64,000 nucleotides of DNA. Source: a virus (lineage: Duplodnaviria > Heunggongvirae > Uroviricota > Caudoviricetes). Positions 5,828-62,610 of the stretch are shown piece after piece. The first letter of the stretch is position 1; the number at the start of each line of letters is the position of its first letter. The DNA lies in the IMG/VR virus record IMGVR_UViG_3300021066_000001. One strand, written 5' to 3'. A program made the translations under genes and the position numbers. The notes under the pieces were generated by a model. The model searched no databases. It worked only from the letters and a program-made list of their open reading frames with translations, and was not told the origin of the DNA.

Positions 5828-5912
5828 TCGACGCCTCCGTCGTTAGTTTGGGCGAGCACCTTGGGTTCGAACCAAGATCTTACGAGCCAACTCCCTCGTG
5901 CTCGCTTACGTC

Positions 5913-43005: not shown

Positions 43006-44502
43006 TTAAGCCATTGCTCTCGCGCGAACGTCGTCGAGCTTCTCGTCGATGAGCAGCACGCCGTTCTCGTAGATCGTGACCATCTGGTCCTGGTACTCGG
43101 CGTCGATCTTCGAGTCCATGTCGAGCGTCACGTACTCGCCGGTGAGAGCGCTCCGGTACAGCGAGAGGCGCCCGCCCTGCGACTTCTTGCCAGCGTCGGT
43201 GATCGGGTTCTTCGCGATCGGCTCCCAGCGGTTTCCGCGGCGAATCGCCGACGCCTTCTGCGCGAAAGAGTAGGTGTCACGGTTGACCTTCTGGAGGAGC
43301 GCGCCGCCAGAGCCGAACACGATGTTGCAGGCCGCGAAGCCCATCTCGGTGACCTGGTCGAGCACCGCGTTCATCAGGTCGAAGTCGACCCCGTCGCCCC
43401 AAATGACTCCGACGTTGTTGATCACGAGAAAGCCTTTCGAGTTCTTCGTGGTGCCGAACGCCGCGGCGAGCTTGCGGAGAATCGCCGGGAGGAGCTCGAG
43501 AGGGTCGCCCGAGTCTGGGCGGAGAACCACCTTGGCGCCAGAAGCGACGATCATGTCCCTCAGTGAGCAAACGACATCGGTCTCACGGAGGGTGTCGTAA
43601 CCGTCGATGACGATCGACACGATGCCGCCCGGCTTGGCCTGAGTCTTGATCACCGTCTCCAGGTACTCGCGCTGACCCATCGCGCCATACGCGGTCTGCA
43701 CGCTGTGCTCGGTGGCAAAAACGCTGTAGGCCGCCATGTCACAGTTGTAGTAGAAGTTCGCCGCGCGTACGCCGTCGATCGTGTCCGATCCGCCGAAATA
43801 GATCAGGTGGGACATGCCGCCGTTTTCGGCTTGCTCTCCGCAAGTGACCCCGCGGCCGCCGAAATCGTGGAGAGCGATCGCGGTCCAGGGCACCGGCGCC
43901 GGATCGTTCGACATCGCGTCATACAGACGCAGCGCACGCCAATTCTTGTAGTCGTTCGACGCGATCGTCGTCATATACCAGACGACGCGCTGAACCGCGG
44001 TCTCGATGTACGACGCGAGCCAGAACAGGTCGGGATCGGTGCACTCGATCGTCCAGAGAGCGTTGCCGCTCGGGACTCGCGTGCCTTCGCGAACGCCGCG
44101 GATCTTCAACGGCAGAAAGCCGTTGTACTTCTTGACGACCTTTTCCCAGCCAGCACGGTTGAAGGTGACGGCGCCTTCACCAGCGATCAAGTGCTTCTTG
44201 GCAAAGGCCTCGGCCTCGTCGATCATCTCCATGGTGATCTGCTTAGAGAGCAGCACCTTTTTGATGAACATCTGCATGCCGACGGGGACGATCGTTTCGC
44301 CCTTTTTACGGGCCGCGAGATAGGAGAACATTCCGTTCGTCGCGGCCGGGTAGATCGCCCAGTGGCCGAGCTTGTAGCTATCCGCTTCGAGCGGAATGTT
44401 GCGGGGCATCAGCGGCTGGCCGCCGCTCCACGCGGTGATGGTCTTCTGGTCAGGTGTGTCTCCGGGTTCCCGGAGGGGTGCAAGTTCAACTGCATTTTTC
44501 AT
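43006..44502 (-). CDS. nadV: Nicotinamide phosphoribosyltransferase (NAMPT/NadV)
   Basis: 498 aa; N-terminal ...LEADSYKLGHW and overall NAMPT-like length and blocks. Confidence 0.8.
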   Translation of the reverse strand: MKNAVELAPLREPGDTPDQKTITAWSGGQPLMPRNIPLEADSYKLGHWAIYPAATNGMFSYLAARKKGETIVPVGMQMFIKKVLLSKQITMEMIDEAEAFAKKHLIAGEGAVTFNRAGWEKVVKKYNGFLPLKIRGVREGTRVPSGNALWTIECTDPDLFWLASYIETAVQRVVWYMTTIASNDYKNWRALRLYDAMSNDPAPVPWTAIALHDFGGRGVTCGEQAENGGMSHLIYFGGSDTIDGVRAANFYYNCDMAAYSVFATEHSVQTAYGAMGQREYLETVIKTQAKPGGIVSIVIDGYDTLRETDVVCSLRDMIVASGAKVVLRPDSGDPLELLPAILRKLAAAFGTTKNSKGFLVINNVGVIWGDGVDFDLMNAVLDQVTEMGFAACNIVFGSGGALLQKVNRDTYSFAQKASAIRRGNRWEPIAKNPITDAGKKSQGGRLSLYRSALTGEYVTLDMDSKIDAEYQDQMVTIYENGVLLIDEKLDDVRARAMA

Positions 44503-44561: not shown

Positions 44562-45731
44562 TCACTTGATCTTTCCGCCCACGTTCGCTCGCTCGAGGCG
44601 GTCGGCGAAGTCCGAGATGATGTCCCAGTGGTCATCGAAGAGCTGGTCCGACATGTTGATCGCTTCGCCGACCGGAAACCACTTCGCCTTGACGGCGTCA
44701 TCGGAGCCCTTCACCTTGGGCAACTTGATCTTGCCGTCGACGACGATGTCAGCCAGCTCGAAGCAGTAGGCCATCGAGACGACGCGGCCGCGGCCGGGCG
44801 AGCGATCCGGGTGCTCGAAGAAGTGGTTGAACTTCAGCGAGTTGCGGAGGGCGAGCTCGGGGACGTCGAGCTTAGTCTCTTCGTAGAGCTCACGAACGGC
44901 GGTGTCGAAGGTCCACTCGAACTCGTCGACGTGGCCGCCCGGGAGCGCCCAGAGGCCCTTGCCGGGTGCAGCGCGGCGTTGGACGAGGAGGATGTGGCCG
45001 GTCTGAAAGACGACGGCGTCGGCCGCGAACTCGATGATCGGGTACTTGCGCACCGTTGAGAGGGCCTTCTTCGCCTCGTTCTTCTTGCGCTCTACCTCGA
45101 ACTCCTCGAGGAGGAGTGAGTAGGCCGGCGTCTCCTTGAAGCGCTCGAGGAAAGCGCGTGACTCGTGAGGGATGAACGCGCGGAGCAGCATCTCGCGGTT
45201 GCCGTCGGTGATCTGGTTGCCCTCGAACTCGTTGCGGAAGAAGAGGTTGCGGAGGGCGGTCGCGGAGAGAACCTTGCTGACGTTGCGGTTCTCCTCAACG
45301 AAGTCCCGCTTCCAGTTGGCCTGGGCGAGGAGCATCTGCAGGTAGAACGTACTAGCGTCGCGCTCGGAACCGGTGAGGTAAACCTCCCTGGCATCGGGCG
45401 CCGCGCGTCTGACCTCGGCCTGGACCTCGGCGAGCCACTTGGTATTGTTATACCTGTAGTCGCGGGCGAAGACGACCTCGAGGTCCGCTAGATCCGACCC
45501 TGGGCGAGGGGCGTTAGCGTTGAACCAATTCTCGTACCAGTTCATGATCACAGCGGCACGTTCGCCGCCGGTGAAGGGATTCTTGGTGGTGCGAGGCTGC
45601 CAGGTCGAGCCGATGACGACGATGACCTTGTTGCTGAGGTTGAGCGCTCGCTCGAGAAGCTCAGCGTGCCCGACGTGGAACAACGAAAACCTACCGATGA
45701 GGACCGTGAGGTCCCGTTTGCTACCTGTCAC
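44562..45731 (-). CDS. natV: Bifunctional NMN adenylyltransferase (NadM-type) / Nudix hydrolase
   Basis: HxGH nucleotidyltransferase motif (GRFSLFHVGH), Nudix box GGHVDEFEWTFDTAVRELYEETKL; GTG start with AAGGAG SD. Confidence 0.8.
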   Translation of the reverse strand: MTGSKRDLTVLIGRFSLFHVGHAELLERALNLSNKVIVVIGSTWQPRTTKNPFTGGERAAVIMNWYENWFNANAPRPGSDLADLEVVFARDYRYNNTKWLAEVQAEVRRAAPDAREVYLTGSERDASTFYLQMLLAQANWKRDFVEENRNVSKVLSATALRNLFFRNEFEGNQITDGNREMLLRAFIPHESRAFLERFKETPAYSLLLEEFEVERKKNEAKKALSTVRKYPIIEFAADAVVFQTGHILLVQRRAAPGKGLWALPGGHVDEFEWTFDTAVRELYEETKLDVPELALRNSLKFNHFFEHPDRSPGRGRVVSMAYCFELADIVVDGKIKLPKVKGSDDAVKAKWFPVGEAINMSDQLFDDHWDIISDFADRLERANVGGKIK

Positions 45732-46161: not shown

Positions 46162-46604
46162 AGGCCAGATTGATAGATGAGCTTGATCTTGAGGAACTTT
46201 TCGATCTCTTCCCAGTTTTCAGCCTGGGTGCAGGGTTCAGCGATCAGCTGCTTGAAGTTTCTAAGCGCATCGTCGTCCGTCCAGCGATTCTTGATGAACG
46301 TCTTGTCGGCCAGGTCATAGATGATCGACGCCGAGTACTTCCCCTTCAGCGGGATCCTCCACGCGAAGTCATTCCCGGGACTCACCCTCCGTCCAACCTC
46401 GATGATAAAGTTTTCGTTCTTGCCTGACCTCGTGAACGCCGGACCGAATGACAAAAACATGAAATGGTGATCCGGGCGCATCTCTCTGATGTGGGGCCAA
46501 TCGAAGTCGTCAGGCGGAGTGGGAGCTACGATGTGTCCAGCTCGCTTGAACACCTCATAGAGCTCATCGCTCAAAGCTCGATCACCTGCCCCTTCTGCGC
46601 CCAA
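46158..46604 (-). CDS. Hypothetical protein
   Basis: ORF track. Confidence 0.45.
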   Translation of the reverse strand: MGAEGAGDRALSDELYEVFKRAGHIVAPTPPDDFDWPHIREMRPDHHFMFLSFGPAFTRSGKNENFIIEVGRRVSPGNDFAWRIPLKGKYSASIIYDLADKTFIKNRWTDDDALRNFKQLIAEPCTQAENWEEIEKFLKIKLIYQSGL

Positions 46605-47461
46605 CCCTTGAAGCCGTCAGCAACGGCGTCGGCCTTCGGTCCAAACTGATAGTGGTAGAGCCACATCTTCGCCTTCGTCTCGGCGGGAAGCGTCTTGAGC
46701 TGGTCGTAGTGCGCGTGAACCCGTGACTTGAAGGGAGTCGTCTCGCAGTCGTGGAGAATCAGATCGGCCGCGTTGTAAAAGTCGACGATCTGCTCGGGAT
46801 TGAACTGGGTGTCCGACGTCCAGAAGACGTTCTTGCCGTTCGCCTTGAACTCGAGCCCGAACGACGGCATGATGCGATTGTCCGACATGATGTGAACGAC
46901 CTGGATCAGCTTCATGTTCAGGCCGCACCAGCTGAACTGTCCCTTCTTGCCGACGCGCTGCAAATTGAAGTAGGTGTCGAGGTCAGCCGCCTCTCCCTGC
47001 TTGGAGTCCATGCCGCCGGACAGCGACTTGCTCCAGAGCTCGTACGCGAGGGAGCGATCGATGATCAGGTTGGGCTTCGGCTTTCCGGCAAAGTGGGTCA
47101 TGAAGCCGATGTACTCCATGCCGCCGACGTGATCGGCGTGCGGGTGGCTGATGTAGACGTCGTTGATGTCCCACGCCGTTAGGCCTTGCTCGCCGAGCGA
47201 GAAACGGACGTCGCCTCCGGCGTCCCAGAGCATGCGCCGCGTGCCGAGGGTCGGGTGCGTGGCGGTCAAGACGAGGTTGCTCTGCCAGTTGCTGGTGCGG
47301 CCGGCCTTGAGAGCCTCGATGTCGGTGTAGAACGCCGCGCCAGTGCCGAGAAACTGGATCTGGTACTTGTAGCCGAGATTGAGATCCTTGAGATCTCCGA
47401 TCTTGAAGCTGATCGTCTTGTCGAGATCGATCGTTTGGTCGAGCTTTTCGGTGCTTTCCAT
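46571..47461 (-). CDS. Metallo-beta-lactamase-fold hydrolase (RNase Z/ElaC-like; candidate Apyc1-type cyclic-nucleotide phosphodiesterase)
   Basis: FLGTGAA, HPHADHVGG (HxHxDH), downstream His/Asp ligands. Confidence 0.6.
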   Translation of the reverse strand: MESTEKLDQTIDLDKTISFKIGDLKDLNLGYKYQIQFLGTGAAFYTDIEALKAGRTSNWQSNLVLTATHPTLGTRRMLWDAGGDVRFSLGEQGLTAWDINDVYISHPHADHVGGMEYIGFMTHFAGKPKPNLIIDRSLAYELWSKSLSGGMDSKQGEAADLDTYFNLQRVGKKGQFSWCGLNMKLIQVVHIMSDNRIMPSFGLEFKANGKNVFWTSDTQFNPEQIVDFYNAADLILHDCETTPFKSRVHAHYDQLKTLPAETKAKMWLYHYQFGPKADAVADGFKGWAQKGQVIEL

Positions 47462-47678: not shown

Positions 47679-47891
47679 TCATGGACAACTCACTATGTTT
47701 AAGAGGGTAAAGATCTTCTGCATCCAGACGCCGCAGAAGTAGCTACACACGCACGCGCCCCAGCACATCTTCTCGCGCGCAGACTCAGAGAAGATCGGCC
47801 AAGATAGAGACCCCACCGCAAGACCTACTACCGCGATGAGCGAGAGGCCCAACAAGGCCCCGTAGAGAACCGCGACGTAAACGTTGCTCAC
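47679..47891 (-). CDS. Small membrane protein (70 aa, GTG start)
   Basis: Trimmed from ORF 47679..48185 to the GTG overlapping the upstream stop (GTGA); hydrophobic YVAVLYGALLGLSLIAVVGLAV. Confidence 0.35.
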   Translation of the reverse strand: MSNVYVAVLYGALLGLSLIAVVGLAVGSLSWPIFSESAREKMCWGACVCSYFCGVWMQKIFTLLNIVSCP

Positions 47892-48841
47892 TTGTACTCC
47901 CAGTCCGAGCGACGCTCGACGATCGTCAAGCACTTGGCCGATCCACCGGCCTTCAGGTACTCCGACAGGTCGGTCTCGAGGGGGATGAAATTTTCGTCGT
48001 CGAGAAATCTCTGAAGCCGGCCGCTCAGCTTGTGAGCGATCACGCACTCCTGGATCCCGACCGCGTTTGCCGAGAAGTCGATCGCCTCGCTCTCGTCGAG
48101 AAACGTCCACGCCGTGCCGAGGTCGTTGAACATGTCCTCTAGACGAAGTCGTGAGGCGCGGTCGAAGGCCTCCGGATAGAACCACCCGACCGACGCGTCA
48201 CCCTGTCCGTGCCAGAAGAAGCACGTGTCTAGGTGATAGAAGCGAGGATCAACGAGACGTACCGGGATGATCTGCTGCGCGTCATCCTCCGTGTAATAGG
48301 CGCAGAGCTGCTTGACGAACTCCTCGGAGGTACGATGACCGTAGCCGACGACTAGATAGTCACCTGCGCGCAGGAGGTCTCCGTCACCCTCAAACGAGGG
48401 GAGAACCTTGCCAGGATGGAGCTCTCTGATGATCTCGTGGCGGTGCCACGAGAAGTGATCCTCAAAAAAGTTTTGCTCGATCACTCTCTCCTGCTTGGCG
48501 AACCTTGAGGGGAGGAAGATGTAGTCACCTGACCCGTCGCTCTTGGGGAGAAACGAGCCGGCGTTCGCGATGAAGACGGCGTCTGGCGCGTTGTCGAGGT
48601 GAAAGGGAATGACGCTCGGATCGGCCTGGTGCACGTACGCGCCCGCGTGCTCGAGGTGATAGACGAGGTTCAACCACTGCTTCTTGGCGAGGCTCAGGTC
48701 GACGGTGCCGATCTTGTCGATCATCCATGGGTTGATCTCATAGTCGACGCCGTAGACGCTCGGCCTCGAGACGTGGAGAGTAGCTGGCTTGAGTTGCTCC
48801 TCAAGCAGGAGCTCCTTGAGCGGTCGTTGTTCTGTCGTCAT
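47888..48841 (-). CDS. Amidinotransferase-superfamily enzyme (ADI/DDAH/agmatine-deiminase-like guanidino-group-modifying fold)
   Basis: C-terminal GGSAKCLT matches the catalytic-Cys motif (GGG..HCMT) of this superfamily; 317 aa. Confidence 0.45.
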   Translation of the reverse strand: MTTEQRPLKELLLEEQLKPATLHVSRPSVYGVDYEINPWMIDKIGTVDLSLAKKQWLNLVYHLEHAGAYVHQADPSVIPFHLDNAPDAVFIANAGSFLPKSDGSGDYIFLPSRFAKQERVIEQNFFEDHFSWHRHEIIRELHPGKVLPSFEGDGDLLRAGDYLVVGYGHRTSEEFVKQLCAYYTEDDAQQIIPVRLVDPRFYHLDTCFFWHGQGDASVGWFYPEAFDRASRLRLEDMFNDLGTAWTFLDESEAIDFSANAVGIQECVIAHKLSGRLQRFLDDENFIPLETDLSEYLKAGGSAKCLTIVERRSDWEYK

Positions 48842-48867: not shown

Positions 48868-49341
48868 TTACGGAACCGGGATGACAGAGATGGAGTGCTT
48901 GGCTGAGCCAGAGATGAGCCTGGTCGAGTACGAGACGTAGACGAGAACGCGCCGCTCCTTGTCGTAGAAACGCTTCACCTTGAGGTGCTTGAAGATGGGT
49001 GAGCGACTCTCTCGAAAGACCTCCTCACCCTGCTCGATCGCGATCCTGAGGATCAGCGAGGGGCCGATCTGGCGACACGCGATCGAGGCGTCGGAGGTCT
49101 CTTCGGCGAAGGGGTTGAGCGTGCCCCTGACCGTGTAGCTGATGTAGCAGTAAGCTCCCTCGACCTTTGGATCGGCGAAGGCGTCGATCGCGATCTTGCT
49201 GTTGGGGCCCATGAAGTTGATCTCGGTCGTCACCTCACCGATCCGATCGCGAGCGTGTGCGCTGGTCATGAAGCCGCAGATCGCCATGAGGAGAACGAAG
49301 ATCGCGAAGACCGCGCCGTGCAGATCCATCTTTTTGGTCAT
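48868..49341 (-). CDS. Secreted or lipoprotein-like protein
   Basis: Signal peptide with a Cys in the hydrophobic core region (VFAIFVLLMAICGF). Confidence 0.45.
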   Translation of the reverse strand: MTKKMDLHGAVFAIFVLLMAICGFMTSAHARDRIGEVTTEINFMGPNSKIAIDAFADPKVEGAYCYISYTVRGTLNPFAEETSDASIACRQIGPSLILRIAIEQGEEVFRESRSPIFKHLKVKRFYDKERRVLVYVSYSTRLISGSAKHSISVIPVP

Positions 49342-49811: not shown

Positions 49812-49859
49812 GACGGAGATATTATCTCAACCAGACCTAGGTGTAAACTAGAGCCTAGG

Positions 49860-50549
49860 TTATTTGATGAACTTCTTAGGGTCTGGTTGTTGCTCCGCGA
49901 TTCGCTGAATCTCGCCGTTCTCATGCTTCCACCGCACGTTTAGCACGGGCATCTGGTGCTGCTGGATGCGATTGAAAGCTTCTACGGCGATCTCGAGGAT
50001 CTTTTGCGGAGAAACGAAGGCGCCAGACCCGTCATGGACGTCGAGGAGAACCTTGTGGGTGATGAGTGAGCGATCGAAGGCCCGGTAAAAGTCGTTCTGC
50101 TCCTCCTCCCTCTGAGTGACGTCAAACGACTTGCCGTCATCGGAGATGAAGTTCCAGTCGGAGGTGTGGAGAAGAATGAGGAGCGTTCGCTCATCGAACT
50201 TGGAACCGATGCTCTTGAAGTGGCGCTCGAGCTCGAAGACGTACGTTCCGTCGTACTTGCGGTACCTCGGGGCGTACACAAACTCTCCCAGGTGAGCTCG
50301 ATCTAGGATCAGCTTCGCCTCTGAGGAGAGCATCCTGAGCATGGTGGTGAAGGACTCGAGCTGGTATTGCTTCAAGGCCTCACGGCTTCGCTCTTGCTGG
50401 TGGAGAATCGGCCCTGTCAGGTAGCGATCGAGGAGCTTGGGCTTCTCGTAGTGAATGACTTGAAAGTAACCGAGCCGCTGGAGAAGACCCTCGATCAGCG
50501 TGCCCTTGCCGAGACGATCGCAGCCCTCGATGATGATCGACGAGAACAT
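49860..50549 (-). CDS. Thymidylate-kinase-like P-loop (d)NMP kinase
   Basis: IIIEGCDRLGKGT (like IEGxDGAGKTT); start trimmed to an internal ATG. Confidence 0.5.
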   Translation of the reverse strand: MFSSIIIEGCDRLGKGTLIEGLLQRLGYFQVIHYEKPKLLDRYLTGPILHQQERSREALKQYQLESFTTMLRMLSSEAKLILDRAHLGEFVYAPRYRKYDGTYVFELERHFKSIGSKFDERTLLILLHTSDWNFISDDGKSFDVTQREEEQNDFYRAFDRSLITHKVLLDVHDGSGAFVSPQKILEIAVEAFNRIQQHQMPVLNVRWKHENGEIQRIAEQQPDPKKFIK

Positions 50550-50749
50550 CAGAACGCGATGAGACCGGTGATGACCGAGAAGATCGCAGCGGCGAAGCAA
50601 CCGAGGCCGATGAGGGTAGGAAATACTCCGGCCAAGCCGTCGGCGAATGTGCCAGAGCCCCCGCTAGCGTTCGCTCCCCAGAACATGAACGTTCCTCCGA
50701 GAGCGCACAAGAAGATCGGCACGTACCACCAGTGAAGAATGATCGTCAT
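50549..50749 (-). CDS. Small membrane protein
   Basis: Two TM helices. Confidence 0.45.
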   Translation of the reverse strand: MTIILHWWYVPIFLCALGGTFMFWGANASGGSGTFADGLAGVFPTLIGLGCFAAAIFSVITGLIAF

Positions 50750-50755
50750 GTCCCT

Positions 50756-51127
50756 TTACTTGGCGAGCTTGAGATTGGCGCCGCCGGGCATCTGGCTTGG
50801 GCTAGCGAGAGCGATGCTCGTCGTCTGTTGCATGTAGATCTTCTCGAGCTCGGGATCTGGCGCGTAGACCGCGATCGCGATGTCCTTCAGGTCGACACTG
50901 AGCTTGACGTCCTGGTTGCCCAGAGTCCAGGGCATGATCGCGAGACCCTTCCCGAGCGGGTGGAAGCCGACGACCCGGGTGTCGGTGAGAACGACCGCGA
51001 GGCTCTTGAGAGGTTGACCTTCCTGAAGCAGATCGTCGAGGTTGATGCCGACGGACGAGAGGGGCGACTCGGTGGCCTTAGCGATGATGTCCTCGCCGGT
51101 GGTGAGCTTGATGCAGATGATCTTCAT
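50756..51127 (-). CDS. Hypothetical protein
   Basis: ORF track. Confidence 0.5.
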   Translation of the reverse strand: MKIICIKLTTGEDIIAKATESPLSSVGINLDDLLQEGQPLKSLAVVLTDTRVVGFHPLGKGLAIMPWTLGNQDVKLSVDLKDIAIAVYAPDPELEKIYMQQTTSIALASPSQMPGGANLKLAK

Positions 51128-51801
51128 GTGATCTCCAGGTATTTGAAGTGTCTTGAGTAGACGTGTAACGAGCCGGCGTTCCAGAAGATGGGTCCCTCCT
51201 GGAGGTTCGGGTAGGTGTAGCGAAGGTCACCGAGAAGCTGGTCCCTGACGTGCTTCTGCCAGTGAAAGTCGTTGTTGTAGCCAAACACCGCGTCGTTCGA
51301 CCGCATGTCGACCTTAGTGACGAGGGCTTCCTCGCGGATGAAGTATTGCACAGTGTTGGTGCAGATGAAGTCTTGCATCCCGTCACGGTTGAAATCGACG
51401 TGCATCGATGGCCGAGTGTAGATCATGACCGCGCGGCGTGACGTCGAGTCCCGGTCAAGCTCGGTCAGAACGTTCTGGTATTGCATTCCGTTCTGAAACC
51501 CGTAGATGCACCAGCCGTAGTTGGAGTTGATCTCGCGCTTAGAGCTAGCTACCTGAGACCAGATCTGCGGCGGGCCGCCCGGGATGTCGTCGACGTTGAG
51601 AGACATGCTCTCGTACCACTGGAGCTCGCGCTTCGCCCACTCCTCGTTGAGGGAGCCGAAGATTGTCGGCTCGTCAGCCAGAAAGCACGCGTTGATGATC
51701 TCAACGGTCTGCGCGCCCGTCTTGTTGTTGCCGATCGTCATGAACTTTTGATTTCGGTAGAGCTCGATGAGCTGAGCTCGGATGTCGCGCACTAGCATCA
51801 A
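51124..51801 (-). CDS. Deoxycytidylate 5-hydroxymethyltransferase (T4 gp42 homolog)
   Basis: Matches T4 gp42 blocks: KTG.QTVEII.A.F.ADEP.IFG.LN, SKREINSNYGW, SRRAVMIYTRPSM, FICTNTVQY, MRSNDAVFG, WNAGSLHVYSRHF. Confidence 0.85.
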   Translation of the reverse strand: MMLVRDIRAQLIELYRNQKFMTIGNNKTGAQTVEIINACFLADEPTIFGSLNEEWAKRELQWYESMSLNVDDIPGGPPQIWSQVASSKREINSNYGWCIYGFQNGMQYQNVLTELDRDSTSRRAVMIYTRPSMHVDFNRDGMQDFICTNTVQYFIREEALVTKVDMRSNDAVFGYNNDFHWQKHVRDQLLGDLRYTYPNLQEGPIFWNAGSLHVYSRHFKYLEIT

Positions 51802-52112
51802 GCTCGCTTCCCTCCGCCTGAGCGGTGGGGCTTGACCGGACGACCCTTGTCGATCTCGACTCCGAGTTGCTCCACGAACTTTTTCACGTCACTCGGAGCT
51901 ACATCTACCTCAATGAGAGCAACGCTTCTTCCCTTGCGACGTACTCTCTCGCGAGCTCCCTGGTGGGGAAAGTAACCGCGCTTGTCTCCTCGGGCGCGAG
52001 CCTCAAGCAAGAGCTTGCGACTGGTTGTGTGAAGCACGGGAGTAAAGTCGATCTTTGTGGGATCGACAGGAATTCCTGCGATGTTTATCGGCTTAGTGTC
52101 TTCGGAGTTCAT
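51798..52112 (-). CDS. Hypothetical protein (weak SUI1/YciH-like resemblance)
   Basis: RRKGRSVALIEVDVAPSDVKKFVEQL vs SUI1 GRKGKGVCLITGLDLDDAELTKLAAEL; weak. Confidence 0.35.
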   Translation of the reverse strand: MNSEDTKPINIAGIPVDPTKIDFTPVLHTTSRKLLLEARARGDKRGYFPHQGARERVRRKGRSVALIEVDVAPSDVKKFVEQLGVEIDKGRPVKPHRSGGGKRA

Positions 52113-52115
52113 TTG

Positions 52116-53204
52116 TCATTCTACCTTGCCGCCAGCTAGCCGTAAATTTTCCCGGAGGTACTCGTTGTTTGGCTCGATCGCTAGAGCTTGACGAATCAAC
52201 TCGACGCCCTCAGCGCGCATCCCCATCCAGTAAGCGGAGACACCCGCGAGGTTGTGCGGCTCATATCCCCATGCCGACGGCTCGTTGAGATAGACGTTTG
52301 GGCGCTCCTTGATCGCGAGCGCTCGAGTCATCGCCGCGTAGCAGCCGACGTGGTCCTTCCGCGTCTCATAGAGAAACTTTCCGTACTCGACCCAGGGCTC
52401 TCGGGTACGGGGCTCCTCGGCGCAAGCACGTAGTAACCAGCGCTCGGCCTCGTCAAGCTGACCGAGCGCTTGCAAGCAACGCGCGATGTAACGCATCGAG
52501 GCAGCTCGCTCGGCGTTCCAGGTCGCTCGCTTGAGGGTGAGGTGACGCTTCAGCTCGGCGATCGCGTGGTCCCACATCCCGTAGTACATGTACTCGCGAC
52601 CGAGATAGTGAGAGTTGCGGTCATCCTCTGGCTCCTCACGCACCGACAGCTCGAGGAGCGAGAGGTAGGAGCCTCGTGACTTCGTCGGGTCGGGGTAGTG
52701 ATAGAGCTTGAACCCGTCGACGAAGAGCTGCGTCTCTTCGCCCTTGTAGAAGGCGAGGGTCTCGTGGACAGGCTTGACCCAACGAAAGCCTCCTCGGGTG
52801 TGGATCTTGTCGTACCAGTATGTCGTCCCCTCTCGACCGTCAGGGAGAGTGTTCCACACGTACTGGTAGCGGACTCGATCTGGCTTCTTTTCTGCCTTGA
52901 GATAAGCCTCCTCGAGGCACTTGCGCCACCCGGGCGAGAGCACCTCATCGAGGTCGATGCACACGCAGAGGTCGACGTCGGCGGGTACGAGCTGCATCGA
53001 GATGTTTCGAGCGACGTCGAACCGCCACGGCTTGAGCTTGATGACATCGACCTGCGCGCCGCGGCGCCGTAGGGCTTCGACCGTACCGTCGGTAGAGCCG
53101 GTGTCGGTAACGTAGACGCCGTCAGCCTCGTTGCAAATCGAGTTCATGAAGCGATCAACGAACTTCTCCTCGTTGAGCGCGATGGTGTAGACGACGATCT
53201 TCAT
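52116..53204 (-). CDS. GT-A fold (GT2-like) glycosyltransferase fused to C-terminal TPR repeats
   Basis: YVTDTGSTDGT nucleotide-sugar-binding motif, DLD (DxD), then 3-4 TPR-like repeats (AELKRHLTL..., YIARCLQALGQLDEAERW...). Confidence 0.6.
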   Translation of the reverse strand: MKIVVYTIALNEEKFVDRFMNSICNEADGVYVTDTGSTDGTVEALRRRGAQVDVIKLKPWRFDVARNISMQLVPADVDLCVCIDLDEVLSPGWRKCLEEAYLKAEKKPDRVRYQYVWNTLPDGREGTTYWYDKIHTRGGFRWVKPVHETLAFYKGEETQLFVDGFKLYHYPDPTKSRGSYLSLLELSVREEPEDDRNSHYLGREYMYYGMWDHAIAELKRHLTLKRATWNAERAASMRYIARCLQALGQLDEAERWLLRACAEEPRTREPWVEYGKFLYETRKDHVGCYAAMTRALAIKERPNVYLNEPSAWGYEPHNLAGVSAYWMGMRAEGVELIRQALAIEPNNEYLRENLRLAGGKVE

Positions 53205-53563
53205 GCCAGCAACTTCCAGAACTCTCGGTCGACGATCTCCGACATGCCAGCCTCTAGCAAACGCGACTGCGTCGTGAGCTTCACGGAGATCTCATTCATC
53301 TTCTTCACTGACTCGCTCTCTACCTCACTAACTCGTCTCGCGTAGATGGGATAGGATGGGAAGAAGAAGTCGCCTAACGCTTGCTCTAGCGCTGCTGGAA
53401 GAGCATCCGCCATCGCTCGCTCGTCGTAGAGCCGGCCGCCGGCGTTTGTCTTCGTGACTTGGAGCTCGTCCAACATGAACAAGTCAGCCGTGCGTCCTCT
53501 GATCTCAGCAGCCATCCGCGTCTCTCGCTTCCTCACGCAACCACCCCTCTTGCCAGAGCTCAC
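53201..53563 (-). CDS. Hypothetical protein
   Basis: ORF track; start uncertain. Confidence 0.4.
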   Translation of the reverse strand: MSSGKRGGCVRKRETRMAAEIRGRTADLFMLDELQVTKTNAGGRLYDERAMADALPAALEQALGDFFFPSYPIYARRVSEVESESVKKMNEISVKLTTQSRLLEAGMSEIVDREFWKLLA

Positions 53564-53709
53564 GGCGATGATCCACGTACGGACATTGCTCGTACATCGC
53601 GCCCTCCCAGTACGCGTCGGCGCCCTCGCTCACCACGAGCTCGTCGACGTGACGCTGGCGATACGCGTCGAGCGGATCGAACCCGTCGATGAGCGGGAGC
53701 GAGCTTACG

Positions 53710-54117
53710 TCATCTGTCATTTCCATTACCCTTGAGCACTCCTCGAGACCATCTATCGGCGAGCTTGGTGACGTTGTAAGACATCACCTCTTGAGGATTT
53801 AGGTCGTGAGCCGTCGCGATCCTCACTAGATAGTAAAGGATGTCTCCGAGCTCCTTCTTGAGCTGATCCCTGTCAAGCTTGCCGTCACGCACCCACTTCT
53901 TGAGGAGCTCCATCACCTCGCCGGTCTCACCTGACAGGCCGACGGTCATGATGTAGTGGTCGCGCAGCTTCAGCTTTCCCTCGTTGAGCCACACCGCGTC
54001 GACGAACTTCGCGTACTCGTTGAGGGTGATGTCCCCCTTCGCGGCCGCCTCGACGATGTTTCGTTCCTTAGCTTGCTGCTTGTTTTCCCTCGTGCTAGCT
54101 CTTCTGCGTGGAATCAT
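53710..54117 (-). CDS. MazG-like nucleoside triphosphate pyrophosphohydrolase (candidate dCTPase/dUTPase)
   Basis: GLSGETGEVMELLKKW...ELGDILYYLVRIA matches the phage MazG EExxE/ExxD core. Confidence 0.65.
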   Translation of the reverse strand: MIPRRRASTRENKQQAKERNIVEAAAKGDITLNEYAKFVDAVWLNEGKLKLRDHYIMTVGLSGETGEVMELLKKWVRDGKLDRDQLKKELGDILYYLVRIATAHDLNPQEVMSYNVTKLADRWSRGVLKGNGNDR

Positions 54118-55813
54118 TGACTTCCTGCTTTAGTTGCTCGAACGCCTCACCCCAGCACGACGGGTCGTAGTGGTAGCTTGACGGGCGATGGGTGATCTGT
54201 TCTGCTTGCATGACGTAAGATCTAGCTTCAGCGAGCATCCCGGCTTGCTTGTAGATGCGCGCCGCGTAGGTCTTGTACTCTCTCGACGCCGGGCTCTCGG
54301 CGATCGCTCTCACCATGTGTTGAGCCGCGTCGTTTAAGGCACCGGCGGTCTGGAACGCGCCTGCCACCTGGGCGTGGAGGAATCCACGGTCCGCGTTAGG
54401 GCACTCTAGCGCCTTCTCGTACGCTCTCAACGCGTCATCGAAGCGCCCGACCTTGAGCAAATCCGCCGCGTAGAACGAGTAGAGCTTCCAGCGGGTTGAG
54501 TCCTCGCGGAGAGCTTGCTCGAGGAGCGGGAGGTACGTTGACCGATCCTTTAAGGGGTCAGGTTTCTGAACCATCTTGATCCCGCCGAGCCACTTGATGA
54601 TCTCAGCTTGTCTGTTGATCTTGACGAGTACCTCATGCACCGGGAGCTTCCACTGGTAGCCGTGACGGTTGTGGATGCGCTCGTGCCAGTGGCTCGAGAT
54701 CTGCGTACCGGCGCCGTGCCAGTCCCAGATCGACTCGAAGCGGTGGTGATAGCGATCACGCGGGCGACCGATCTCTTGCAAGTCCTTCTCGATCTCCTCG
54801 ATGAGGAGCTCTCTCCAGTTAGGCGTATCCATCAGCTCGTCGGCGTCGATCGAAACACACATGTCGATGTCCTCAGGAACGAGACAGAGAGCGGCGTTTC
54901 GCGCGTCGTCAAATCGCCAGGGATCGACGTGGAGCTTGACTACCCTCATGGTGTTCGTCGACGCGCCGCGCAGGTGACCTGAGTGATCGTAGTGAAACTG
55001 AAGGTCCCTCTCGTGGCCGTGGCTCTCGGTGCGCTCCTCCACGAATCGTACGAGTTGCGTGAAGGTCTCGTCCGATGATCCGGTGTCGCAGAAGACGATG
55101 AAATCAGCCTCTTGGATCGACTCGTAGCAGCGCTTGATGAACTTGCTCTCGTTCTTGCAGATCCCGTAGACGGCGATCTGGGGCTTCAGCACGTCGTGCA
55201 GAAGCTCCTTGACGAACGGCGTTGACGAGAGGAAATAGATGCCGATCTCGGCCTCGCGACCCCACGAGACGACGTGCTCACCGACGCACTCCATGAACTC
55301 CTCGTGAGTCCAGTCATCCTTGAGATGAGCCTCGTACGGGTTGCCATTGTACTCGTCCTGCGGATAGTGCCCGAGGGGAACGCTGACGATCACGAGCCGG
55401 CCGAGTCCGAGCGCGTTCTTGATCAGCTTCACAGCTCCCTCTGGCCCGTCCTTGGGGAGATGCTCGATCACGTCACCGAGAAAGATGATGTCGAAAATCG
55501 GAGCTGGACAGGGCGACAGCCAGTTCGGTGCTCTCCAACCGGTCAGCAAAATTTGACCGTGGGCGACGTGGAGCTTATCGTACTTCTCGAGTAGCCCGAA
55601 CTCTGCGACGTAGGGTTCCCAGATCTCGATGCCTTCCCAGTGAAACTTTGGCCGGGGTAGGTGGCTTTTCGCATAGCGGTCAGAGTACGTGCCTGAGCCA
55701 GCACCGAAATCTAGGACCCGGTGTTCGCTGTAAAAGAGCTTAGAGATCTGGTGATTGATGCGGAGGATCGCGCGATCAATCAACTGCTTCCCGGAGTCTG
55801 AACTAAATGGCAT
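54095..55813 (-). CDS. Three-domain protein: class I SAM methyltransferase + GT-A (GT2-like) glycosyltransferase + TPR repeats
   Basis: N-terminus VLDFGAGSGTYS (MTase motif I); middle IVFCDTGSSDET...D.D; C-terminus TPR-like (YEKALECPNADRGFLHAQVAGAFQTAGALNDA...). Paralogous to 52116..53204 in the GT+TPR part. Confidence 0.6.
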   Translation of the reverse strand: MPFSSDSGKQLIDRAILRINHQISKLFYSEHRVLDFGAGSGTYSDRYAKSHLPRPKFHWEGIEIWEPYVAEFGLLEKYDKLHVAHGQILLTGWRAPNWLSPCPAPIFDIIFLGDVIEHLPKDGPEGAVKLIKNALGLGRLVIVSVPLGHYPQDEYNGNPYEAHLKDDWTHEEFMECVGEHVVSWGREAEIGIYFLSSTPFVKELLHDVLKPQIAVYGICKNESKFIKRCYESIQEADFIVFCDTGSSDETFTQLVRFVEERTESHGHERDLQFHYDHSGHLRGASTNTMRVVKLHVDPWRFDDARNAALCLVPEDIDMCVSIDADELMDTPNWRELLIEEIEKDLQEIGRPRDRYHHRFESIWDWHGAGTQISSHWHERIHNRHGYQWKLPVHEVLVKINRQAEIIKWLGGIKMVQKPDPLKDRSTYLPLLEQALREDSTRWKLYSFYAADLLKVGRFDDALRAYEKALECPNADRGFLHAQVAGAFQTAGALNDAAQHMVRAIAESPASREYKTYAARIYKQAGMLAEARSYVMQAEQITHRPSSYHYDPSCWGEAFEQLKQEVNDSTQKS

Positions 55814-55881: not shown

Positions 55882-58032
55882 ATGAGCTTGACAGGACCTA
55901 CCGGGCCACAAGGATTTCCTGGACCCACAGGACCCACCGGGTGGACCGGACCTGTAGGCGCGACTGGAGCCTCGCTCACTGGTCCGACCGGTCCTGCTAG
56001 CGGACCCACCGGAGCCACAGGGCCGCAAGGATTTCCGGGTGTCACTGGTCCGACCGGTGTCATTGGTCCGACTGGAGCGACCGGGGCAAGCGGCGTCGCA
56101 GGAGCCCGCGGACAAACCGGTCCGACTGGAGCTACCGGCGCCGATGGGGTCTCCCTCACGGGACCGACCGGGGCGACCGGAGCAGGGGGTGATGACGGAG
56201 CTGACGGAGCTACAGGCCCGACCGGTCCGACTGGAGCGACTGGCGCCTCAGGGCTTTCTGTAACTGGACCTACTGGTGCGAAGGGCGCGACCGGCCCGAC
56301 GGGGCTTTTAGGAGCTACTGGTCCGACCGGAGCTGCAGGTCTCTCGCTGACCGGGCCTACCGGCGCGAGCGGGGTAGCTGGCCCGACAGGAGCCGGCGGA
56401 GCTACAGGAGCTACAGGAGCTTCTGGTATCTCGGTAACCGGTCCGACTGGAGCCAAGGGACCTACCGGCGCGACAGGTGCATCGGTGACTGGACCGACAG
56501 GGCCCTCGATCACGGGACCTACCGGTCAATCTGGAGCTCGAGGAGAGACAGGCCCGACCGGAGCTACCGGTGCCGCTGGGATCTCCCTCACAGGCCCGAC
56601 CGGAGCTACAGGAGCTGGTGGGGATGACGGATCGGACGGAGCTACAGGACCGACCGGCCCGACCGGAGCTACAGGAGCAGCTGGCATCTCGGTCACTGGC
56701 CCGACCGGCGCGAAGGGAGCGACCGGGCCGACGGGTTGGACAGGCCCATCGGGGGAGACCGGTGCGTCGCTGACAGGACCGACCGGACAGTCTGGAGCTC
56801 GCGGAGAGACCGGTCCGACAGGAGCTACAGGAGCGGCTGGAGTTTCACTTACCGGTCCGACCGGAGCTACAGGAGCTGGCGGAGATGACGGGTCTGACGG
56901 AGCTACAGGACCTACCGGTCCGACCGGAGCGACGGGGGCGGCCGGCGTCTCGATGACCGGTCCGACCGGCGCGAAGGGAGCGACCGGGCCGACAGGAGCT
57001 TCGGTGACCGGACCGACAGGAACGTCTCTCACTGGACCGACAGGGCAATCTGGAGCTCGCGGAGAGACAGGGCCGACGGGATGGACAGGGCCAGCAGGGT
57101 CTAACGGAGCGGCGGGACCGACGGGGGCGACAGGTCAATCAGGACAGCGCGGAGAGACCGGTCCTACTGGGCTCTCGCTGACAGGGCCCACGGGAGCTTC
57201 TCTGACAGGGCCCACGGGAGCTGCAGGAGCTCGCGGACAGACCGGTCCGACCGGAGCGACGGGCACCACAGGTCCGACAGGTCCAAACATCACTGGTCCG
57301 ACAGGAGCTCAAGGGCAGCCAGGAGCAACTGGACCGACGGGATCGCAGGGAGTGACAGGTCCGACCGGATGGACAGGTCCGAGCGTTACGGGTCCGACCG
57401 GCGTCACCGGGCCCCTCGGTCCGACAGGCTCCACAGGCGCGACAGGCCCCTCGGGCGGACCGACTGGACCGACAGGCTGGACGGGTCCGAGCGTCACGGG
57501 ACCGACCGGACCGCAGGGAACAACTGGACCGACCGGAACAACAGGGCCGAGCGTTACAGGCCCAACTGGAACGGGTGGTGCTACTGGACCGACTGGGGCA
57601 ACTGGGCCGCAGGGGACAGGTGGGCCGACAGGGCCGAACGGGCTCGTCGGCGGAGCTGGTCCGACAGGTCCTACAGGAATTCGTGGTCCGACCGGCCCGA
57701 CCGGATGGACAGGTCCGAGCGTTACGGGCCCGACCGGCGTCAAGGGAGCTACCGGGCCGACAGGCCCCGCGAACACGATCATCGACGGCAGCGCAACGTT
57801 CAACCCTGGCAATTTGGTTGACGGCGCGGGTGAGTCGACGACGGTGACCGCGACCGGCGCAGCGCTGGGCGACTTCGCTGTCGCATCCTTTTCGCTCGAC
57901 ACGCAAGGTCTCACGGTCACCGCGAACGTCACCGCAGCTGACACTGTCACGGTCAGGTTCCAAAATGAGACCGGTGGCGCGATCGACCTCAACAGCGGCA
58001 CGCTCCGCGTCAGGGTGTGGAAGCTCGCATGA
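55882..58032 (+). CDS. Collagen-like (interrupted Gly-X-Y) fibre protein with C-terminal globular domain; probable tail fibre
   Basis: ~620 aa of GPTGxTG triplets, internal tandem repeats, C-terminal ~90 aa non-collagenous beta-rich domain. Confidence 0.75.
56152..57090 (+). repeat. Intragenic tandem repeats (~85-140 aa units, 3 copies) inside the collagen-like gene
   Basis: [16 protein letters not shown](A/S)[31 protein letters not shown] ... [14 protein letters not shown] recurs at aa ~91, ~235 and ~322. Confidence 0.7.
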
Positions 58033-60019: not shown

Positions 60020-60481
60020 TTACTTAAGCTCGATCAGCTTGGGCTTCGCCTCAGGCGGCAGCTCACGCTTGATCTGGACCGCCAAAATCCCGTCCTGGAA
60101 CGTCGCCTCATCTACGTCGGCGTGGTCTGGCAGCGTGAACGACAAGGTAAAGTCCCGCGCTCCGATGCCTCGCTTGACATAGACAGGACCGTCCTCCTCG
60201 GTCTTCGACTTCGTTGACCCCTTGATCGTCAGCTTTCGCCCCTGATGCTCGACCGTGATCTGGTCACGCTTGAAGCCAGCGAGCGCGAGCTCGATCGCCC
60301 ACGTCTGGTCGTCGATTTTGACGATGTTTGACGGCGGGTACGTGTCGTTGAACGAGAGCAAGCTCAGATCGCGGTCGAGCCCGTCAAGCAGGTCGAAGCC
60401 GCGGAGCGAGCCTAGCCGGTTGAGGTCGTTGAAGAGATCAGCGACGGTGTCTGAGAGATGCGGAAAGAGAGAGGTTTTCAT
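60020..60481 (-). CDS. Hsp20/alpha-crystallin small heat-shock protein
   Basis: ACD core ...IELALAGFKRDQITVEHQGRKLTIKG...ATFQDGILAVQI. Confidence 0.7.
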   Translation of the reverse strand: MKTSLFPHLSDTVADLFNDLNRLGSLRGFDLLDGLDRDLSLLSFNDTYPPSNIVKIDDQTWAIELALAGFKRDQITVEHQGRKLTIKGSTKSKTEEDGPVYVKRGIGARDFTLSFTLPDHADVDEATFQDGILAVQIKRELPPEAKPKLIELK

Positions 60482-60585: not shown

Positions 60586-62610
60586 TTATTCAACGACCTC
60601 AAGAGCTAGGCCGCGGTAGCGCAAGAGCTTTTCCGTCGTGGCTGGATAGCACCCGAACTCCTCCAGTGACTTCGAGGCGGGACGTGAGGCGCCTCGCTTG
60701 AGAAACGAGTTATAGAAGCGACGTCCAGCTCCACGAAGTCCTGCCCTCTCGAACTCAGCGTAGACGTTCGCAGCGTACATCTCAGCCCAGAGATAACCGT
60801 AGTAGCCGACAGCGTAGCTGTCCATGTTCCCCGCGAAGAGGTGATGGAAGCCGCAGAGCAGGTTCGTGTCGTGCAGGTCGCCCAGGTAGGGAGCGTACTC
60901 GTCGATCAGCTTCGCCTCGATCTCCCACGGAGAGGTCTCCGAGCGATGAATCTCAAGGTCAAGCGTCGAGCGCTGGATCATTCTGGCTAGCTGATAACCC
61001 GTGTTGACGTGCTTGTTCGCGATCAACGCGTCGTAGAGAGTTTGTGGGATCTTCTCTCTCGACTTCCAGTGGGAAGCGACGTAGTCAAGAACGTTACGGT
61101 TCCAACAGAAGAACTCCATGAGCATCGAGGGAAGCTCGACGATGTCCCACTCGATCGCGCCGAGAGACGCGGTCTCGTACTCGCTCGAAGCGCAGGACAG
61201 CGCGTGCACGCAGTGACCCCACTCGTGGAAGATAGTTTGAAGCTCCTCGAAGTTCATCTTGCCGGGCGTGAAGTTGCAGTTTAAGTTTGCGGCAGGCGGG
61301 TAGATCTTTCCGCTGCTGCTCACCCTGCGACGAGAGAACTCGTCCATCCAGGCTCCGCCTGTCTTCTTCTCTCGAGCGTACAGGTCAACGTAGAGGAGAC
61401 CGTCTCCAACTCGAAAGACCCTCACTGAGGGGTGCCACGTTTGCACCTCCCTCGTCACCTCAATGATCTCGATCTCGTACATCTCGCGGGTCAGGTTGAT
61501 CAACCCCTCGAGAACGCCGTCGATGTCACGGAGATAGTCGTTGAGCACGACGCTGCTCAGACCGGTGCTTGAGCGAAACTTCTCCGTCAAGTACTCGAGG
61601 TCCCACGGCATCAGGTCGCTCTCGAACCCCCGTAGCTTTCCGAGCTCTCTGAGGCGGTCCAAGTCACGAGCTGCACCCTTCTTCGCGGAATCGGCCATCC
61701 GCTGGAGAAAGTCGCTGATCGTCTGAGGCGTGAGCGCCATCTTCTCGGAGGCAGCCAGATCTGCGTATGATCGAGTCGGGTCCTTGGTGATCGTCGTCGT
61801 GAGCTTCTTGCGAAGCTTGAGAATCTTGTTGATGATCTCAACGTTGCTGTACTTACCCGTGGTCGCGCGAGTCATCCGTGCCTGATAAAACAAGCGCCGC
61901 ACGTTACGGTCGTCGCAAAACTGCATGATCGCGTCATACGACGGATCTTGCATCGTGAAGACGTATCCGGTCAAGCCTCGCCGAGAGGCTTCCTCCTTGG
62001 CCGCGGCGAGCGCGTACTCTGGCAATCCCATGTGCCTCTGCCAATCCTCACAGCGCCAGTAAAACGCGTCGGTCGCTTCGAGAAGGTTGGTGTTGAACTT
62101 GGCGCTCAAGCTCGCTAGCTGGTGCACCGTCTTGTTGTAGATCTTGCGTTCACCCTCTTCTAGCTCGATGCCGCCCATCTTGAAGTCATAGATGATCGAC
62201 TCGAGGGCCTCACGCTGCTCTAACGTCAAGTCAGTGCGCTTTTCGAGGCTCAAGAAGCGAGCGTAGAGCTCATGGTTCTGGTTGAACCAGAGCTGGTAAT
62301 CATTGATCAGCTCTTGCGACTTGAGAAACGCGCGACGAACCTGAGGGGTTGACCTGACCTCGTTCAGGTGAGAGACGATCTGAAACGCTCTGTCGAAGGC
62401 CGCGTGCGCGTCATCGATCCGCTGCACGAAGTCCCACGACTCTGGAGCCGCCACCTCGTCGATGATCTTCTCCACCGTCGCGCGAGTCTGCGCCGCGATC
62501 ACCTTCATCGTCGAGTGGATCTTCGCGTGGTCGATGTCCGCGAAGCGGATCGGCCCCTCAAGATCGAGAAGAGGGTCTAGCTGGGTGAGAGACTGGGCGG
62601 AGGCAAACAT
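60586..62610 (-). CDS. M3-family zinc oligopeptidase (oligopeptidase A/Dcp/PepF-like)
   Basis: HEWGHCVH (HExxH) and a downstream Glu; 674 aa. Confidence 0.7.
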   Translation of the reverse strand: MFASAQSLTQLDPLLDLEGPIRFADIDHAKIHSTMKVIAAQTRATVEKIIDEVAAPESWDFVQRIDDAHAAFDRAFQIVSHLNEVRSTPQVRRAFLKSQELINDYQLWFNQNHELYARFLSLEKRTDLTLEQREALESIIYDFKMGGIELEEGERKIYNKTVHQLASLSAKFNTNLLEATDAFYWRCEDWQRHMGLPEYALAAAKEEASRRGLTGYVFTMQDPSYDAIMQFCDDRNVRRLFYQARMTRATTGKYSNVEIINKILKLRKKLTTTITKDPTRSYADLAASEKMALTPQTISDFLQRMADSAKKGAARDLDRLRELGKLRGFESDLMPWDLEYLTEKFRSSTGLSSVVLNDYLRDIDGVLEGLINLTREMYEIEIIEVTREVQTWHPSVRVFRVGDGLLYVDLYAREKKTGGAWMDEFSRRRVSSSGKIYPPAANLNCNFTPGKMNFEELQTIFHEWGHCVHALSCASSEYETASLGAIEWDIVELPSMLMEFFCWNRNVLDYVASHWKSREKIPQTLYDALIANKHVNTGYQLARMIQRSTLDLEIHRSETSPWEIEAKLIDEYAPYLGDLHDTNLLCGFHHLFAGNMDSYAVGYYGYLWAEMYAANVYAEFERAGLRGAGRRFYNSFLKRGASRPASKSLEEFGCYPATTEKLLRYRGLALEVVE

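Follow-up and report, generated by a model that had tools for sequence, protein, structure and literature searches.

The question raised by this locus is whether the phage that carries it builds its DNA with a modified cytosine. We examined a 64,000-nucleotide stretch of a Caudoviricetes genome (IMG/VR record IMGVR_UViG_3300021066_000001; this whole stretch is called the window) in which a gene for a T4 gp42-like deoxycytidylate (dCMP) hydroxymethylase, at 51124–51801, is followed 575 bp downstream by a gene for a thymidylate-kinase-like protein, at 49860–50549. A preliminary description of the segment 49860–54117 had joined these two genes with a MazG gene, a T4 gp1-like deoxynucleoside monophosphate (dNMP) kinase, a second all-alpha nucleoside triphosphate (NTP) pyrophosphatase and ThyA, and proposed that together they reconstruct the logic by which T4 supplies 5-hydroxymethyl-dCTP (hm-dCTP) and excludes dCTP. 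All six genes proved to be real minus-strand open reading frames (ORFs), each with a significant family match. From their sequences we consider it probable that this phage, with a genome of ~396 kb, replaces some or all of its cytosine with 5-hydroxymethylcytosine (hmC), the nucleotide being made before replication as in T4.

The 51124–51801 product (minus strand; the likely start is an ATG one codon inside the listed TTG) was assigned as a T4 gp42-type dCMP hydroxymethylase, or 5-hydroxymethyl-dCMP (5hm-dCMP) synthase, from homology and signature residues. Against the T4 gp42 structure (PDB 1b49) it gave E=2.3e-77, with residues 2–221 aligned to 6–224, and the identity to T4 was 55.9% by tblastn (56% over residues 2–221), in full agreement with its designation as gp42-like. 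The residues equivalent to E. coli ThyA 143/146/169/177 were D/C/D/D, the same as in T4 gp42; by window numbering these are D144 and the catalytic C147 within DFIC, D170 within MRSND and D178 within GYNND. The catalytic cysteine was that equivalent to E. coli ThyA C146 (T4 C148), and an aspartate at the N177 position was read as dCMP specificity. Controls scored at positions 143/169/177 were RB69 gp48 (E/N/D), the dUMP hydroxymethylase M6 gp58 (D/D/N) and the ThyA of the window (L/D/N). Some gp42 homologs (RB69 gp48, DLP3 gp80, RL38J1 gp216) yield 5-hydroxy-dCMP and not 5-hydroxymethyl-dCMP, and the diagnostic changes in E. coli ThyA numbering are N177D for dCMP specificity, L143D/E for non-methyl products and D169N for the 5-hydroxy enzymes (PMC13326640, NAR 2026). 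Because Asp is kept at ThyA-169 in the window enzyme (MRSND), where the 5-hydroxy-dCMP synthases have Asn (MRSQN), a hydroxymethyl product is predicted. The signature thus supports a predicted 5hm-dCMP synthase of the hydroxymethyl type, and it ruled out both a dUMP hydroxymethylase and a 5-hydroxy-dCMP synthase. The protein also matched 191 Microbacterium phage records by tblastn; a search of the literature for dCMP hydroxymethylase in Microbacterium phages found nothing.

The kinase at 49860–50549 (minus strand) was assessed from its motifs, its fold and its gene linkage. It matched phrog_761, annotated "thymidylate kinase", at 2.4e-9 (RB69 gp45 matches phrog_761 at 1.6e-45) and scored below the curated thresholds (TIGR00041, 15.6 bits vs a cutoff of 83.25; AAA_28, weak and sub-threshold), with no PF02223 match; on the TIGR00041 score and the missing PF02223 match, a true dTMP kinase was rejected. 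Direct sequence search of the PDB with the kinase returned spurious KIN17 matches only. The motifs EGxDRLGKxT and DRAHLGE, which in our reading are similar to the P-loop and the DR motif of thymidylate kinases, were invariant across 45 homologs. An AlphaFold (AF2) model was obtained with pLDDT 95.3 and pTM 0.92, for which the best PDB entries found by Foldseek were B. subtilis YorR (2axp, 3kb2) and thymidylate kinases (4s35, 4gmd); probability was 1.00 to YorR and many thymidylate kinases, with TM-scores of 0.5–0.7. As modelled, the protein has the thymidylate-kinase/YorR fold, with a C-terminal beta-hairpin extension that is not seen in thymidylate kinases. Of these structures, DLP3 gp78 was reported to match 3kb2 and 4s35, and RB69 gp45 to match 4gmd and 4s35 (PMC13326640). 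Profile alignment (hhalign) to RB69 gp45 gave a probability of 90.7 and E=1.2e-6 over 90 columns, and the window kinase falls into one group with the "nucleotide kinase", as yet uncharacterised, found in the cytosine-modification clusters of RB69, DLP3 and RL38J1.

We examined if the linkage between kinase and hydroxymethylase holds in other viruses, using 80 IMG/VR loci (L092–L171) that encode relatives of the kinase at 30–55% identity on contigs of up to 368 kb. Searching viral contigs with the kinase sequence by itself gave nothing, and an alignment-based search was needed to retrieve these relatives. A thymidylate synthase (TS) homolog lay within 10 kb of the kinase in 76 of the 80 loci, always on the same strand and with a median distance of 3.3 kb upstream; the D/D/D (gp42-type) signature was present in 75 of these 76, the remaining one being a canonical ThyA. 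After near-identical kinases were collapsed, 62 of 67 kinase clusters retained the TS association. The TS genes of the window and of 32/80 kinase loci are gp42-like, and a TS-like gene and the kinase also stay together in Ralstonia phage RsoM2USA and in two related jumbo contigs (249 kb and 497 kb). The gene in the hydroxymethylase slot of RsoM2USA (gp10; L001) and of the 497-kb contig (L003, 8003–9037) belongs to a longer subfamily (278–344 aa, 30–34% identity, D/D/D); it looks, by sequence, like two hydroxymethylase lineages replaced one another in place in related jumbo phages. Because the family adjoins gp42-signature enzymes in 75/80 viral loci, the kinase was placed in the toolkit, and this strong guilt by association argues that the family works in an hmC pathway. 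Of the preliminary reading of 49860–50549, its place among the modification genes stood.

The neighbours of the kinase were also counted at the 80 loci. A DinG-like helicase, recognised by motif inspection only, was present in 43, a guanylate-kinase-like gene in 38, a homolog of the T4 beta-glucosyltransferase (beta-gt) in 27 (median 1.2 kb between its start and that of the kinase), a CofD-like gene with a nucleotidyltransferase in 19, and a PRA-PH-like pyrophosphatase in 16; none of the first four was found in the window. In many loci (L104–L154, L005) a CofD-like/HAD fusion, an NTP_transf_3 nucleotidyltransferase and the guanylate-kinase-like gene lie downstream of the beta-gt homolog, and this set may be an extra, undescribed decoration pathway in those phages. 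Synteny with RsoM2USA and the two jumbo contigs had suggested a further pair of genes as part of the module, namely an arginine-dihydrolase/DDAH-like enzyme (47888–48841; NCBIfam NF052232 at 5e-47, below cutoff) and the adjoining CreA-family protein with a signal-peptide-like N-terminus (48868–49341). The pair was rejected as module members, as it was present in only 2/80 kinase loci; a promoter-like site at 49847–49819 separates it from the kinase operon.

The most economical role for 49860–50549, from its fold, motifs and gene linkage, would be the phosphorylation of hm-dCMP, and we list it as a candidate hm-dCMP kinase. It is also conceivable that the kinase acts after replication on hmC in DNA, activating the hydroxymethyl group for substitution by some other group, and so producing a new cytosine hypermodification, in the manner of the 5-hydroxymethyldeoxyuridine (5-hmdU) DNA kinase. 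Thymidine-hypermodifying phages link a P-loop kinase to a pyrimidine hydroxymethylase (PMC5889632), and the window kinase too is tightly linked to its hydroxymethylase; moreover, it looks redundant beside the gp1-family kinase, and thymidylate kinases do not share its C-terminal extension. However, hhalign against M6 gp54, the 5-hmdU DNA kinase, aligned 24 P-loop columns only, at probability 45, and because the alignment was limited to the P-loop a relationship between the two was rejected. There were no M6- or ViI-like phages among the tblastn matches of the kinase. The kinase has the fold and, invariantly, the DR motif of nucleoside-monophosphate kinases, the window has no aGPT-pyrophosphorylase-like, pyridoxal-phosphate (PLP) or radical-SAM partner by Pfam, and the beta-gt homolog beside the kinase in 27/80 loci would compete for the same hydroxyl. 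Action on DNA is, on this evidence, very improbable, and the role of hm-dCMP kinase is preferred.

The remaining members of the proposed toolkit lie further off in the window or at the other side of the hydroxymethylase, and their family assignments were all confirmed. The gp1-family dNMP kinase (19960–20538, minus strand) matched Pfam DNMK (PF21448, 80 bits vs a cutoff of 27.1) and phrog_139 (4.9e-51), and aligned to the T4 gp1 structure 1dek at 2.6e-7 through both the P-loop and the C-terminal half. Because 872 phage records across many host groups carry the family (including Stenotrophomonas, Caulobacter and small Pseudomonas phages, groups taken here to be without hmC), this kinase is not hmC-specific and its presence is not diagnostic. 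The minus-strand gene at 9664–10548 encodes a canonical ThyA (dUMP to dTMP; Pfam Thymidylat_synt PF00303 at 3.6e-95) with the canonical L143/D169/N177. The MazG-family NTP pyrophosphatase (53710–54117, minus strand) matched PF03819 (37.9 bits vs a cutoff of 22) and phrog_229 (8e-32); its translation contains the metal-binding helices (ExxE...ExxD) as GETGEVME and KELGDILYY, and its weak PDB matches include DCTPP1. The second all-alpha NTP pyrophosphatase (11171–11836, minus strand), two genes away from ThyA, is PRA-PH-like (PF01503, 43.8 bits vs a cutoff of 21.3; phrog_671) and has the EExxE...DxxD metal motif in its translation. It is homologous to the genes that form the 16/80 pyrophosphatase group of the kinase loci (gene cluster 10), whose median distance downstream of the kinase is 5.2 kb.

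The preliminary description had proposed MazG as the dCTPase that takes the place of T4 gp56. This did not find comparative support: no MazG homolog was near the kinase or hydroxymethylase in any of the 80 kinase loci, so MazG was rejected as a recurrent hydroxymethylase partner; it was not at the corresponding position in the related jumbo contigs, and the proteins nearest to it are MazGs of a generic phage type, from roseophages, actinophages and cyanophages. Cyanophage S-PM2 MazG prefers dGTP and dCTP (PMC6850273). A dCTPase role for 53710–54117, argued by analogy and only from its position in the hydroxymethylase operon, is possible but unsupported. By its linkage, albeit modest, the 11171–11836 protein appears the better-supported candidate dCTPase/dUTPase. 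The MazG, PRA-PH and dUTPase_2 Pfam families belong to one clan. T4 gp56 itself is an all-alpha NTP pyrophosphatase, because it matches Pfam dUTPase_2 and the RB69 gp56 model resembles human DCTPP1 and a MazG-like enzyme (PMC13326640, Table 1). The earlier statement that different protein families fill two of the T4 positions consequently holds at the family level only; gp56 is of the same all-alpha superfamily, and the 49860–50549 kinase replaces nothing in T4.

If these genes work together, the pathway would run as follows. An all-alpha NTP pyrophosphatase, more likely 11171–11836 and possibly MazG, would convert dCTP or dCDP to dCMP; dCMP would be hydroxymethylated by 51124–51801 using methylene-tetrahydrofolate, a step predicted at the level of the sequence signature; hm-dCMP would be raised to the diphosphate by 49860–50549 and/or 19960–20538, as fold, motifs and linkage suggest; and, assuming the T4 pathway, a host nucleoside diphosphate kinase would form hm-dCTP, which the phage polymerase would incorporate. 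The separate ThyA would supply dTMP. Of the T4 logic that had been proposed, the hm-dCTP supply half is plausible from sequence, whereas the dCTP exclusion half, given the MazG result, is conjecture.

Several observations weigh against cytosine replacement as we propose it, beginning with the 0/80 result for MazG given above. Full replacement of cytosine requires removal of dCTP, and usually also nucleases against host DNA and a polymerase that tolerates the modified base. Neither window pyrophosphatase resembled gp56 in sequence: BLASTP E values were 1 or above, a tblastn search of the window with gp56 found no match, and an uninformative shallow-profile hhalign of the two against gp56 gave probabilities of 2–16. 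A gp1-family kinase is also encoded by this phage, and in RB69 that family suffices to phosphorylate modified dCMP (PMC13326640); 49860–50549 may therefore have another task, and because of this its hm-dCMP kinase role is put conditionally. The sequence covered was 84 of ~396 kb, comprising the 64-kb window and 10-kb flanks on either side, the flanks by precomputed Pfam domains only. Within this range there was no T4 alpha-glucosyltransferase (alpha-gt) or beta-gt, gp56 homolog or dCMP deaminase in the window and no such Pfam domain in the flanks; tblastn on the window with T4 beta-gt and a metagenomic homolog gave a best E of 0.08, and PF09198 was absent from the flanks.

The same absences of a gp56-type dCTPase, a DNA glucosyltransferase and a dCMP deaminase could mean that these genes serve ordinary nucleotide salvage or pool balancing, where the hydroxymethylase product is low or unincorporated and virion DNA is essentially unmodified, and MazG, PRA-PH-like, gp1-family kinase and ThyA genes are indeed widespread across phage groups. 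Yet, to our knowledge, the T4 literature gives gp42-type enzymes whose signature is intact no role besides hm-dCMP supply for DNA, and hydroxymethylase and kinase are paired over 62 de-replicated lineages, frequently beside a beta-gt homolog, which speaks for working DNA modification. Salvage was judged to be a poor explanation, with little probability, and replacement of cytosine by hmC is kept as the preferred reading.

Two glycosyltransferase genes share the locus. The preliminary description did not mention the one inside 49860–54117, at 52116–53204 (minus strand), which encodes a family 2 glycosyltransferase with tetratricopeptide repeats (GT2-TPR; Pfam Glycos_transf_2 and TPR; phrog_13126 at 1e-107). 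Its paralog at 54095–55813 (minus strand) is a fusion of methyltransferase, GT2 and TPR (Pfam Methyltransf_23, Glycos_transf_2, TPR), and divergent from the latter is a collagen-like gene (55882–58032). The same GT2-TPR pair adjoins a collagen-like gene in the 497-kb contig. These enzymes could conceivably glycosylate hmC in DNA, as GT-A-fold enzymes in place of the T4 alpha-gt and beta-gt and possibly with a methylated sugar: they share a packed transcription unit with MazG, hydroxymethylase and kinase, and GT-A-fold DNA glycosyltransferases beside thymidylate-synthase homologs are documented (bioRxiv 2023.12.21.572611). Furthermore, a beta-gt homolog was found in 0/9 of the kinase loci with a GT2-TPR neighbour vs 27/71 of the others.

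We examined if GT2-TPR genes travel with cytosine-modification genes in 80 viral loci (L012–L091) encoding homologs at 41–50% identity, scoring as collagen-like any ORF with 12 or more Gly-X-Y repeats. In none of the 80 was the GT2-TPR gene within 10 kb of MazG, the kinase or a TS homolog, whereas a collagen-like ORF lay upstream on the same strand in 36 of the 49 loci whose upstream flank was 6 kb or longer; downstream, there was one in 1/43 loci. The bias recurred in the kinase loci, where a collagen-like ORF was present in 7/9 with GT2-TPR vs 1/71 without it; these nine exceptional loci are mutually related and not independent. Phages PaBG, Lu11 and DSL-LC01 carry the GT2-TPR gene without a gp42-like neighbour (in DSL-LC01, after collagen genes), and the TPR domains and a weak SunS-type match suggest protein substrates. 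On the basis of sequence, 52116–53204 and 54095–55813 were therefore assigned to a collagen-like-fibre module and not to the cytosine toolkit, and the 0/80 vs 36/49 counts led us to largely reject them as DNA glycosyltransferases. Co-option to DNA is unlikely, and is allowed a small share of belief because all nine of the related GT2-TPR kinase loci are without a beta-gt homolog. The data suggest instead a widespread phage system that glycosylates collagen-like fibres; the GT2-TPR/collagen-like pairing, probably for fibre glycosylation, is now separated from DNA modification.

A broader departure from T4 would require either that the kinase performs a step not described in characterised hmC phages, the phosphorylation of hmC in DNA, or that the GT2-TPR and methyltransferase-GT2 enzymes were recruited to put a sugar, perhaps methylated, on hmC; taken together these have only a slim chance of being correct. 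The locus illustrates well a strategy that is already known, rather than a new one.

The genome itself is that of an uncultured jumbo phage, judging from gene content. The kinase protein was found verbatim on a 395,674-bp metagenomic contig (ENA ERZ27257322, k141_1025171), to which the window maps at about 26.8–90.8 kb. The genome is 59% GC and the window 57–68% in 2-kb bins, mainly 58–61%; almost every window gene is on the minus strand. An 8.1-kb piece compared by megablast with 50,697 phage records gave zero matches, so there is no close DNA relative among these records and identity with a known phage was rejected. Content of the jumbo type includes a split topoisomerase II, T4-type RNA ligase 1, a PARP-like protein and coenzyme A (CoA) and NAD salvage genes, together with an Apyc1-like hydrolase, HSP20 and the collagen-like protein. 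Topoisomerase II and the dNMP kinase had their closest counterparts in jumbo phages of Xanthomonas, Ralstonia and Stenotrophomonas; the nearest cultured relatives by these two proteins were Xanthomonas phages BUDD and X1, at about 45–49% identity, and RsoM2USA was likewise among the top topoisomerase II matches.

From 55813 down to 49860 the genes are packed, with overlaps of 1–59 nt and gaps of 3–6 nt, and because they overlap or nearly abut they are consistent with a single transcription unit; the 155-nt gap after the kinase end of this unit holds the promoter-like site already noted. Five small ORFs inside 49860–54117 had also gone unmentioned in the preliminary description (50549–50749, 50756–51127, 51798–52112, 53201–53563 and 53505–53726). 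The one at 50756–51127 (minus strand), directly downstream of the hydroxymethylase, encodes a small conserved protein of unassigned function with no Pfam or NCBIfam match. In L002, L003 and a further six kinase loci, homologs occupy the same slot behind the TS-like gene; membership of this protein in the toolkit is uncertain.

Other genes of the window were recorded in passing. For CoA biosynthesis there is a DFP (CoaBC-like) domain protein (1687–2952) and a protein in which dephospho-CoA kinase is fused to a cytidylyltransferase-like (PPAT-like) domain (21762–22811); for NAD salvage, NAMPT (43006–44502), an NMNAT-NUDIX fusion (44562–45731) and a phosphoribosyltransferase (40620–41153), which are syntenic with RsoM2USA and the 497-kb contig. 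The 46571–47461 protein, of metallo-beta-lactamase fold, matched Pfam Anti-Pycsar Apyc1 (70 bits vs a cutoff of 50) and is a candidate cyclic-nucleotide-degrading counter-defence gene. A 449-aa protein (12813–14162) has a PARP catalytic domain (PF00644, 1e-25) and is a possible ADP-ribosyltransferase. An ABC-transporter ATPase (3608–4447), a permease-like protein (5048–5827) and a 594-aa protein with a C-terminal OmpA domain (5913–7697) are unusual phage cargo, and a full-length M3 oligopeptidase (60586–62610; PF01432, 2e-89) accompanies the HSP20 small heat-shock protein (60020–60481). Beyond the right end of the window (L174) are an Fpg/Nei-type DNA glycosylase beside an HNH nuclease (4791–6172) and a ribosomal protein L7/L12 homolog (8127–8519).

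If cytosine replacement is true, about 30% of all bases would be hydroxymethylated in a 59% GC genome of ~396 kb; such DNA would resist most restriction enzymes and several CRISPR effectors, and would be a handicap in cloning and metagenomic sequencing. The thymidylate-kinase-fold family, whose members are annotated hypothetical or "thymidylate kinase", can serve as a marker for hmC-type phages in metagenomes, and the "nucleotide kinase" of the RB69, DLP3 and RL38J1 clusters, so far unexplained, gains a concrete candidate role.

Among known systems, the phages with a 5-hmdU DNA kinase (M6, ViI, SP10, PhiW-14) resemble the window in having a P-loop kinase linked to a TS-superfamily pyrimidine hydroxymethylase; they differ in that this hydroxymethylase is dUMP-specific (M6 gp58 has N at 177), that the kinase is of another family, and that the aGPT-pyrophosphorylase-like, PLP and radical-SAM partners are missing from the window. 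With T4 (Tequatrovirus) the window has in common a hydroxymethylase, 56% identical and of the same active-site signature, a gp1-family kinase and a separate thymidylate synthase (td in T4, ThyA here), and the window pyrophosphatases could fill the role of gp56. In contrast to T4, whose gp56 is in dUTPase_2 and phrog_173, the window enzymes are in MazG and PRA-PH with no gp56 ortholog; alpha-gt and beta-gt are not in the window, nor as Pfam domains in its flanks; the toolkit genes are scattered over 45 kb; and there is an extra thymidylate-kinase-fold kinase, which T4 is without and RB69, DLP3 and RL38J1 have.

The latter three phages, with glycosylated 5-hydroxycytosine (PMC13326640), share with the window an N177D TS homolog, an adjacent thymidylate-kinase-fold kinase and a distant gp1-family kinase, and the TMPK/YorR structures matched by DLP3 gp78 and RB69 gp45 recur among the Foldseek matches of the window kinase. 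They differ at the active site, MRSQN (Asn) against MRSND (Asp-169) in the window, and neither GT-B transferases for arabinose or galactose nor genes for NDP-sugar synthesis lie near the window genes. The metagenomic loci with hydroxymethylase, kinase and beta-gt (L092–L171) and RsoM2USA (gp10/gp6) complete the comparison. In RsoM2USA and the 497-kb contig the TS gene is of the longer, ~30%-identical subfamily, whereas that of the window is gp42-like; the metagenomic loci and RsoM2USA otherwise show the arrangement of the window, with the same kinase family a few kb downstream of a D/D/D TS homolog on the same strand, and in the metagenomic loci the PRA-PH-like pyrophosphatase recurs.

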